Source: an uncultured Collinsella sp. (lineage in GTDB: Bacteria; Actinomycetota; Coriobacteriia; Coriobacteriales; Coriobacteriaceae). From it: a stretch of DNA of 64,000 nt. Of this stretch, positions 35,498 through 38,061 are shown in pieces. Both the position numbers and the translations under genes were made by a program. The stretch covers positions 1,387 through 65,386 of the forward strand of contig CANNOC010000014.1 in assembly GCA_947507155.1 (NCBI GenBank), read 5' to 3'. The notes under the pieces are model-generated. The model was not told the DNA's origin. It saw only the letters and a program-made list of their open reading frames with translations, and did no database searches. Each line of letters starts with the position of its first letter. The stretch's first letter is position 1.

Positions 35498-35676
35498 CCA
35501 AAGGGTGACTACACAGGACCCCAGCCGAGCCGCTTTGGGTTACTTTCCAAAACATTCCGCAGGACGCAAAGGGCTCCGCCGCGCGAAGCGCGCAGCGGAG
35601 CCCTTTGCATGTCCGAGGACGTTTTGGAAAGTAACCCAAAGCGGCCCGGCGATCCTGCGGGAGTTAATCCCCTTTA
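35498..35676 (-). repeat. Long nested palindrome family A, copy after the glycyl-radical gene
   Basis: Core 35524-35650; + strand ATTCCGCAGGACG...GCGAAGC...ATGTCCGAGGACG. Confidence 0.85.
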
Positions 35677-35925
35677 GAACTTGTCGTGGAAAGTGCGCGC
35701 AATGACCTCGTCCTGCTGCTCCTTGGTGAGCGTGTGGAAGTTCACGGCATAGCCGGAAACGCGGATGGTCAGCTGCGGGTACTTCTCGGGGTGAGCCTGA
35801 GCGTCGAGCAGCGTCTCACGGTTGAAGACGTTGACGTTCAGGTGGTGGCCACCCTTCTCGGCGTAAGCGTCGAGCATGTGGACCAGGTTATCGGCCTGAG
35901 TCTCGGAAACTTCAGAAACCTTCAT
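35674..35925 (-). CDS. grcA: Stand-alone glycyl-radical domain (GrcA-like; the missing C-terminus of PFL)
   Basis: GGHHLNVNV...[16 protein letters not shown]; own AAGGAG RBS. Confidence 0.92.
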
Positions 35926-36009
35926 AATGTGTCTCCTTCGATTGATAGCGCCGGCCGAAACCGGCGCGCTAATCAGTAATCGTTATTGTTAGTATAGCAC
36001 TAACAATAG

Positions 36010-38061
36010 TTACTCGCCCAGCTGATCAAGGTCGATATCGCCAAAGAACACCTGGTCCTCCTTGCCGAGCGCACTCGGGATGATGGAGAAGGTGTTAGAG
36101 ATGCCGTCCTGAGCATCGCGGAACGGGAGCTTGGAAACCGAAGACAGCGAAGCGATGGCGCCGTGGCTATCGCGCTTGTGCATGGGGTTAGCACCCGGGG
36201 CGAACGGCTGGCCAGCTTTGCGGCCGTCGGGCGTGGAGCCGGTCTTCTTACCGTACACGACGTTGGAGGTAATGGTCAGAACCGAGGTCGTGGGCACGGA
36301 GTTGCGGTAGGTGTCGTTCATGCGGATGTACTCCATGAACTGGTGCACAACGTCGTGAGCGATCTGGTCGACGCGGTCGTCGTCGTTACCGTACTTGGGG
36401 AACTCGCCCTCGGTCTCGAAATCGACGATGATGCCGTTCTCATCACGGACGGGGTGGACCTTGGCGTACTTGATGGCGGACAGGGAGTCAGCCACGACGG
36501 AAAGGCCAGCGATGCCCGTAGCGAACCAGCGGTGCACGTGCTTGTCGTGCAGAGCCATCTGGATGCGCTCGTAGCAATACTTGTCGTGCATGTAGTGAAT
36601 GATGTTCAGCGAGTTGACGTACACGCCAGCGAGCCACTTCATCATGTCGTTGTACTTGGCCACAACGTCGTCGTAATCGAGCGTATCGCCCTCGACGGCG
36701 CGATACTTGGGGCCGACCTGCTTCTTGGAGACCTCGTCAACACCACCGTTGAGCGCGTAGAGCAGGCACTTGGCCAGGTTGGCACGGGCGCCGAAGAACT
36801 GCATCTCCTTGCCAATGCGCATGGAGGACACACAGCAGGCGATGCCGTAGTCGTCGCCGTGGTAAACGCGCATGAGGTCGTCGTTCTCGTACTGGATCGA
36901 GGAGCTGGCGACAGAAGTCTTGGCACAGAACTTCTTGAAGTTCTCGGGCAGACGAGTCGACCACAGAATAGTCATGTTGGGCTCGGGGCTGGTGCCCATG
37001 TTCTCGAGCGTGTGCAGGTAACGGTAGCTCATCTTGGTAACGAGCGTACGGCCGTCAACACCCATGCCGCCGATGGACTCGGTGACCCACTGCGGGTCGC
37101 CGGTGAACAGCGCCTGGTACTCGGGGGTACGGGCAAACTTGACCATGCGGAGCTTCATGATGAAGTGATCCACGAACTCCTGGATCTGCTCCTCGGTGAA
37201 GGTGCCGTTGGCAAGGTCGCGCTCAGCGTAGATGTCGATGAACGTGGAGGTACGGCCGATGGACATAGCGGCGCCGTTCTGCTCCTTGACGGCAGCGAGG
37301 TAGGCGAAGTACATCCACTGGATGGCCTCCTGCGTGTTGGTAGCAGGGTTGGAAATATCGAAACCATAGGTCTCGGCCATCATCTTGAGCTCGCCGAGGG
37401 CGCGGATCTGCTCCTGCAGCTCCTCACGGTCGCGGATGTTGTCGGCGGTCATGACCGTCGGGGTGGAAGCCTTCTGGGCCTCCTTGTCCTTGATCAGGTA
37501 GTCGACACCGTACAGGGCGACACGACGGTAGTCGCCGATGATGCGGCCGCGGCCATAGCCATCGGGCAGACCGGTGATGATGTGAGCCGAGCGGCAAGCA
37601 CGCATCTCGGGGGTGTAAACATCGAAGACGCCGGCGTTGTGGGTCTTGCGCTCGAAGGTGTAGCGCTCGACAACGCTCTCGTCGACCTTGTAGCCGTGCT
37701 GGCTGGCAGCCTGGCAAGCGATGCGGATACCACCGTTGACGTGCAGCGCGCGCTTGAGCGGCTTGTCGGTCTGGAGGCCGACGATGGTCTCCTTCTCGCG
37801 GTGGGCGTTATCGATGTAGCCAGCGGGGTGGCTCACGATACCCGTGACAGTCTTGGTGTCCATATCGAGGACACCGCCCTGCTCGCGCTCCTTGAGCAGC
37901 AGGTCGAGAACCTCGCCCCACAGCTCCTTGGTACGCTCGGTCGGACCGGCGAGGAACGACTCGTCGCCCTCGTAGGGGGTGTAGTTCTTCTGGATGAAGT
38001 CTCGGACGTCAACCTCTCCCGTCCAAATGCCTTCCTTGAAGCCTTCCCATGCCTCCTGCAT
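36010..38061 (-). CDS. pflB: Pyruvate formate-lyase catalytic subunit lacking the glycyl-radical domain
   Basis: [39 protein letters not shown] (Cys-Cys), DGISNTFS; ends at 683 aa without RVSGY. Confidence 0.95.

Follow-up and report, generated by a model that had tools for sequence, protein, structure and literature searches.

Core and radical-domain genes

The locus analysed here lies in a 64,000-nucleotide stretch of DNA (the window) from an uncultured Collinsella sp. (GenBank assembly GCA_947507155.1, contig CANNOC010000014.1, positions 1,387 to 65,386 of the forward strand). On the reverse strand it carries two neighbouring genes, each encoding one piece of a pyruvate formate-lyase (PFL): the pflB core gene (36010-38061, -) and the small gene grcA3 (35674-35925, -), separated by an 84-bp intergenic spacer (35926-36009, -) with three in-frame TAA codons. 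The initial annotation had described a pflB of 683 amino acids (aa) with an intact Cys-Cys pair and no RVSGY motif, followed after 84 bp by an 83-aa open reading frame (ORF) with its own AAGGAG ribosome-binding site, and both genes and the spacer were recovered as described.

The core gene, called from the ORF list, Pfam and TIGR01255, encodes the 683-aa catalytic body of a PFL and ends with a TAA stop codon; strand beta10, the glycyl-radical loop and the C-terminal helix are absent from its product, which aligned with residues 9-680 of Escherichia coli PFL. Pfam showed a PFL-like match over 5-647 of 647 positions (715 bits), while the match to the 106-position Gly_radical model was limited to positions 1-51. 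The formate C-acetyltransferase model TIGR01255 was passed with 1085.3 bits against a cut-off of 994.2, covering model positions 1-665 of 744. The adjacent cysteines of a PFL were present as Cys409-Cys410 (codons at 36832-36837, -), which align with the catalytic pair Cys418-Cys419 of E. coli in the motif GIACCVS at query residues 406-412, and the Cys-Cys motif was found in every core extracted from relatives. The radical glycine, which a PFL carries on the same chain, was located in an RVSGY motif on the separate 83-aa chain.

This small chain, GrcA3, was identified with NF038360, Pfam Gly_radical and alignments to E. coli proteins. The NCBIfam model NF038360 ('autonomous glycyl radical cofactor GrcA3') gave 165.3 bits against a cut-off of 158, with residues 7-82 aligned on model positions 2-77 of 78, and RefSeq orthologues in Collinsella and Enorma bear the same name. 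By contrast, the GrcA/YfiD model TIGR04365 (98.1 bits, cut-off 170) and the GrcA2 model NF008341 (98.8 bits, cut-off 145) were both failed. GrcA3 aligned with residues 66-125 of E. coli GrcA; about 21 residues precede the aligned part and GrcA's disordered N-terminal half (about 60 residues), required for binding to cleaved PFL, is missing. The predicted parts of the protein are a helix, strand beta10, the radical loop and the C-terminal helix, and the predicted radical site is Gly58 in RVSGY (codon at 35752-35754, -), which corresponds to E. coli Gly734 in the RVSGY alignment. The small ORF had been proposed to supply the missing C-terminus, and this was borne out by its matches to Gly_radical positions 50-105 and to E. 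coli PFL residues 679-756. Core and GrcA3 tile both the domain model (1-51 and 50-105) and the E. coli enzyme (9-680 and 679-756) with neither gap nor overlap, so that the two pieces are exactly complementary. The third component expected of the system, the radical S-adenosylmethionine (SAM) activating enzyme PflA, is encoded at 33374-34213 (-) and was recognised by TIGR02493 (284.4 bits, cut-off 231.75) together with Radical_SAM and Fer4_12 domains. It starts 1.46 kb downstream of grcA3, in agreement with the roughly 1.5 kb first given, and the order core-grcA3-pflA, with pflA downstream of grcA3, was kept in all split loci examined.

Conservation of the split and the two-chain reading

In the window both ORFs fall in one frame with the three TAA codons between them, which is the one observation in favour of an artefact or decay, that is, a sequencing frameshift, a recent pseudogene, or programmed read-through or frameshifting that yields a single chain. 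Among 80 related Collinsella loci, 72 have a spacer of 85 bp, which places the ORFs in different frames, and altogether the frames differ in 76 of the 80; spacers of more distant relatives and other genera range from 65 to 265 bp. These split loci were drawn from many independent assemblies, including isolates, metagenome-assembled genomes (MAGs) and one circular HiFi MAG. Read-through, programmed frameshifting and sequencing error were excluded because spacer length and frame vary among independent assemblies, and the initial argument against a sequencing frameshift was thereby upheld. Codon variants counted in approximately 70 genomes of the C. aerofaciens complex showed 293 synonymous and 14 non-synonymous changes in the core, with a mean ratio of non-synonymous to synonymous substitution rates (dN/dS) of approximately 0.02, and 23 synonymous and 5 non-synonymous changes in grcA3 (dN/dS approximately 0.15). 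Both genes are kept by purifying selection. With the TAA codons and this selection also against it, an artefact or decaying gene is extremely improbable.

A search of the 99.8%-complete genome for a further enzyme of this type returned one PFL-like domain match, the split locus itself, and three Gly_radical matches, namely the two halves described here and the anaerobic ribonucleotide reductase NrdD on another contig. No complete PFL was found in this genome, and the claim that the split is its only PFL architecture therefore held. The genome also encodes a FocA-type formate channel, and Collinsella aerofaciens has been described as a formate producer. These results bear on the possibility that GrcA3 is a classic spare part which rescues another full-length glycyl-radical enzyme while the core is inactive or otherwise employed. 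The homology of GrcA3 to GrcA residues 66-125 agrees with such a role; however, the genome holds no coexisting complete PFL to be rescued and NrdD is the only other glycyl-radical enzyme, GrcA3 is without the 60-residue N-terminal half of GrcA and scored 98 against 170 on the GrcA model, and purifying selection on the core, whose catalytic Cys pair is intact, is very strong. A spare part in this sense is thus highly unlikely.

The distribution of the split was examined at several levels and was found not to be peculiar to this organism. Three Atopobiaceae genera and 30 of the 31 Coriobacteriaceae had a free-standing small gene, with an open frame of 87-199 aa and an identity of 74-100%; other Atopobiaceae and one Collinsella carried a distinct fused PFL lineage of approximately 60% identity, in which pflA lies upstream and not downstream. 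Only Coriobacteriaceae and Atopobiaceae showed the split form in a phylum-wide survey of 400 genomes. In the family of locus L095, which is labelled Lachnospiraceae, 201 species were searched and counts were made by eye among the 150 matches listed; approximately 98 of these were short frames (80-150 aa, 68-84% identity) spread over roughly 85 genomes, with fused forms in other genomes. In two phyla, the two-gene layout is thus common among gut anaerobes. A search of 1.84 billion representative proteins with GrcA3 returned mostly short fragments of uncertain context.

For structure prediction, the two ORFs were joined as a read-through translation with TAA read as Gly, and the chain was modelled with AlphaFold2 using 44 homologues as the alignment. 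The model reached a predicted TM-score (pTM) of 0.84 and a mean predicted local distance difference test (pLDDT) of 77. Compared with E. coli PFL (2pfl_A), it gave a target-normalised TM-score of 0.90 over approximately 800 columns with 59% identity. As the model superposes on the whole of 2pfl_A, core and GrcA3 are predicted to make up a complete PFL fold together.

The gene anatomy, the complementarity of the pieces, their conservation and selection, the lack of another PFL and the PFL-like read-through fold point to a locus that encodes an obligate two-chain pyruvate formate-lyase composed of core and GrcA3, to which we assign a probability of about 0.85; a real, conserved and functional enzyme is very probably encoded. 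By analogy with the single-chain enzyme, the 683-aa core would contribute nine of the ten barrel strands and Cys409-Cys410, and GrcA3 would dock on it non-covalently and contribute a docking helix, the tenth strand, the Gly58 loop and the C-terminal helix. PflA would then remove a hydrogen from Gly58, acting on the assembled complex, and the radical would move to the Cys pair for cleavage of pyruvate to acetyl-CoA and formate, as in single-chain PFL. Several points weigh against this reading. A gene for pyruvate:ferredoxin oxidoreductase (PFOR) is present, so PFL is not the sole route to acetyl-CoA in this organism. Confidence in the model was low (pLDDT below 50) for the Gly loop, for the artificial linker and for the tail of the core, and the model is therefore uninformative on the role of the tail. 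Engineered E. coli tPFL pairs bind too weakly for calorimetry, and their activation is 6- to 32-fold below that of cPFL:YfiD (PMC8683613), so that tight assembly is not guaranteed.

Spacer, core tail and neighbouring genes

The spacer between the two genes folds better than all 200 of its shuffled versions (z = -3.76), and it shows a diversity of 0.021, compared with 0.074 for 4-fold sites in the core gene. Directly after the core stop codon, sequence and fold revealed an AT-rich perfect palindrome with 10-bp arms and a 5-nt loop (35984-36008, -). It occurs once in the genome and holds TGcTATACT, which resembles an extended -10 element; its diversity across 69 related loci is 0.003, approximately 23-fold below the 4-fold sites of the core. 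The palindrome may serve as an operator or a promoter, or may form an RNA hairpin. It is followed by a GC-rich hairpin predicted by folding, with an 8-bp stem, a 4-nt loop and no T-run (35948-35967, -), and by the Shine-Dalgarno sequence AAGGAG of grcA3 (35933-35938, -), 7 nt ahead of the ATG. A GC-rich inverted repeat was visible by eye in most of the other spacers inspected, several spacers showed a GC-rich hairpin together with a TATAAT-like element, and AAGGAG or AGGAG precedes the small-gene start in all spacers listed. A scan for consensus promoters and terminators gave no match within the spacer. The spacer features hint at separate control of the small gene. A mobile-element origin of the split was considered and rejected, given that the palindrome is unique in the genome and the spacer contains no ORF.

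The initial annotation had inferred that oxygen damage would cost only a replaceable small subunit. In an explanation built on this idea, the small chain is a replaceable fuse: oxygen destruction would be confined to the 9-kDa radical chain, newly made GrcA3, perhaps from its own spacer promoter, would swap in and be re-activated, and the 77-kDa core would be spared; this would add to the two-chain reading and does not exclude it. Oxygen also harms the core at its thiyl and Cys sites, which counts against the idea, as does the interleaving of split and fused forms in the core tree described below, which indicates that any advantage is not universal. In its favour, the hosts are gut dwellers with intermittent oxygen exposure, and -10-like TATAAT or TATACT elements occur in several spacers, here within the palindrome that is about 23-fold less diverse than 4-fold sites. 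Oxygen cuts PFL at the radical glycine, and GrcA restores activity in E. coli (PMC8683613, PMC13450708). A cheap replaceable oxygen-sensitive part is a plausible but tentative explanation of the split, and on balance less likely than not. The more specific proposal, that GrcA3 is a consumable cartridge made separately from the palindrome start site in excess of the core, exchanged after oxygen damage and re-activated by PflA, is doubtful; if it were true, recovery of PFL activity from oxygen pulses would be quicker and cheaper in gut anaerobes with the split enzyme than in those with a fused one.

The core ends in an acidic 12-residue tail (36013-36048, -), delimited by conservation of its motif, in which no non-synonymous variant was found in 70 loci. 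The tails had been called non-homologous in the initial annotation, and this was not sustained: in nearly all split cores examined, ALGK is followed by V-F/M-F-G/D-D/E-L/I-D-L-D, and some fused relatives have the same linker. In most Collinsella, in Atopobiaceae and in many Lachnospiraceae, the tail extends into a cysteine motif (...ENPxxDCxCC or ...CCDCTDSSAPEG). In some Lachnospiraceae, core and grcA3 are instead separated by a third gene, which encodes a mini-protein of 55-73 aa, a paralogue of the N-terminal half of GrcA3 with a cysteine motif at its end. A tblastn search of the present genome for such a mini-protein or a cysteine tail gave only the grcA3 gene itself. Outside the aerofaciens group, most split cores end in the conserved cysteine motif (L097-L108, L119-L134).

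A maximum-likelihood tree of the core proteins placed the Coriobacteriales split cores in one clade with support of 100/100. Within it the aerofaciens group nests among cysteine-tailed Collinsella; the tree therefore indicates that its short tail is a secondary loss and that the aerofaciens lineage probably lost the cysteine motif. The fused relatives P0281, P0282, P0294, P0297 and L130 have this same linker inserted between barrel and radical domain, some of them with cysteines, and P0281 was placed inside the Atopobiaceae split clade. Such linker-bearing fused PFLs could be re-fusions or could represent the pre-split state. Split and fused forms interleave among Lachnospiraceae, and the 'fused' label requires at least 5 changes on the tree even when only well-supported branches are used. 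Because fused relatives share the linker and the forms interleave, the break is placed in an inserted flexible linker that was cut more than once, and possibly re-joined more than once. The core tail is a remnant of the linker found also in some fused relatives, and this linker is longer and cysteine-rich in relatives.

The same observations would fit a nearly neutral fission, in which a stop and a start codon arose in a long flexible linker, the pieces still assemble, and split and fused forms drift without benefit. This accounts for the same data as the fuse idea and draws on the inserted linker in the five fused relatives, some with the cysteine motif, on the five or more changes of the 'fused' label and on the position of fused P0281 inside a split clade. 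On the other hand, the split is stable throughout the well-supported Coriobacteriales clade, the spacer is under constraint, and a strong ribosome-binding site precedes the small gene in all spacers listed. We consider fission without benefit rather unlikely.

In the surroundings of the two genes, a gene of the DegV family (fatty-acid-binding) lies between grcA3 and pflA (34379-35242, -). In the aerofaciens group, pflA is preceded by two inserted elements, the DegV gene and a dispersed palindromic repeat. None of the loci checked in 26 more distant relatives has the DegV gene, and many of them have pflA within a few hundred bases of grcA3. Just downstream of grcA3 is an inverted repeat (35524-35650) with 62-nt arms that are 82% complementary, a member of a dispersed palindromic family with approximately 10 further copies in the genome. 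An RNA gene was sought at 33000-39000 and discarded, as Rfam gave only sub-threshold, spurious microRNA-like matches on this long inverted repeat. A MarR-family regulator gene (38610-39059, +) is divergent and upstream of the core gene and is a candidate local regulator.

Comparison with known systems

PFL has been described as the most widespread glycyl-radical enzyme and is central to anaerobic fermentation. In a review of the enzyme family dated June 2026, spare-part proteins appear solely in the role of rescuing a single-chain enzyme after damage (PMC13450708). The name GrcA3 was found in none of roughly 8.4 million papers, and a literature search gave no paper describing a split PFL; the two-chain PFL is named in an annotation resource and is, to our knowledge, not described in a paper. 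Should the two-chain reading be correct, a natural obligate two-chain PFL would be common among Coriobacteriia and Lachnospiraceae of the human gut, and the radical domain would be a separable module in nature. The locus would provide a natural system for asking how an activase recognises a free or a docked radical domain, and 'repair by replacement' would become directly testable. Where genome annotation and metabolic models call the 683-aa PflB broken or truncated, or count GrcA3 as accessory, the formate production of these organisms would be misjudged.

Close known systems are E. coli PflB with GrcA/YfiD (PDB 1H16/2PFL and 6OWR) and phage T4 Y06I, which belong to the same enzyme family. 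In these as in Collinsella, a PFL without its radical loop can be made complete by a small homologue of the PFL C-terminus that carries RVSGY. E. coli differs in having a complete 759-aa PflB, for which GrcA, with its 60-residue disordered N-terminal half, is an emergency replacement. In contrast, the Collinsella genome has no complete PflB, and its 83-aa small chain is without the GrcA N-terminal half and is encoded between the core and pflA. The NF038360 name GrcA3 fits the 83-aa protein, as an annotation label only.

Two recent structure entries were also compared. PDB 38lb_A (739 aa) and 38la_A (687 aa), both titled 'Formate acetyltransferase', are core-type PFLs without a radical domain from other organisms. 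The alignment of 38lb (1193 bits) spans core residues 1-681 and takes in the first part of the tail; each entry consists of four chains of one sequence, and GrcA3 matched no chain of either. Both entries are absent from the structure library of 2026-04-08 and appear to have been released after April 2026. No paper was found for 38la or 38lb, and they suggest that work on split PFLs is under way elsewhere.

Among natural split forms, the three-gene PFL of Lachnospiraceae (core, 55-73-aa cysteine mini-protein and GrcA3) has the same break point and the same core tail motif, and the small subunits of Lachnospiraceae split loci are 68-84% identical. It differs in the mini-protein, or in the cysteine motif on the core tail, neither of which is present in this Collinsella genome.

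A strong experimental precedent is the engineered E. coli pair tPFL:truncYfiD (Andorfer et al. 2021, PMC8683613), which likewise joins a core without beta10 and the radical loop to a minimal radical domain. For the pair tPFL(1-695):truncYfiD(61-127) the apparent kcat was 204 per s, compared with 105 in the wild type (PMC8683613), and its catalysis per radical equals that of the wild type (PMC8683613). YfiD was activated only when a PFL variant was present (PMC8683613). Compared with the engineered pair, the natural break lies approximately 15 residues earlier (E. coli position ~680), so that GrcA3 also carries the preceding helix, and both natural pieces have a further 12 residues at one end. 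The helix ahead of beta10 and these extra ends may supply the affinity that is missing from the engineered E. coli pair.

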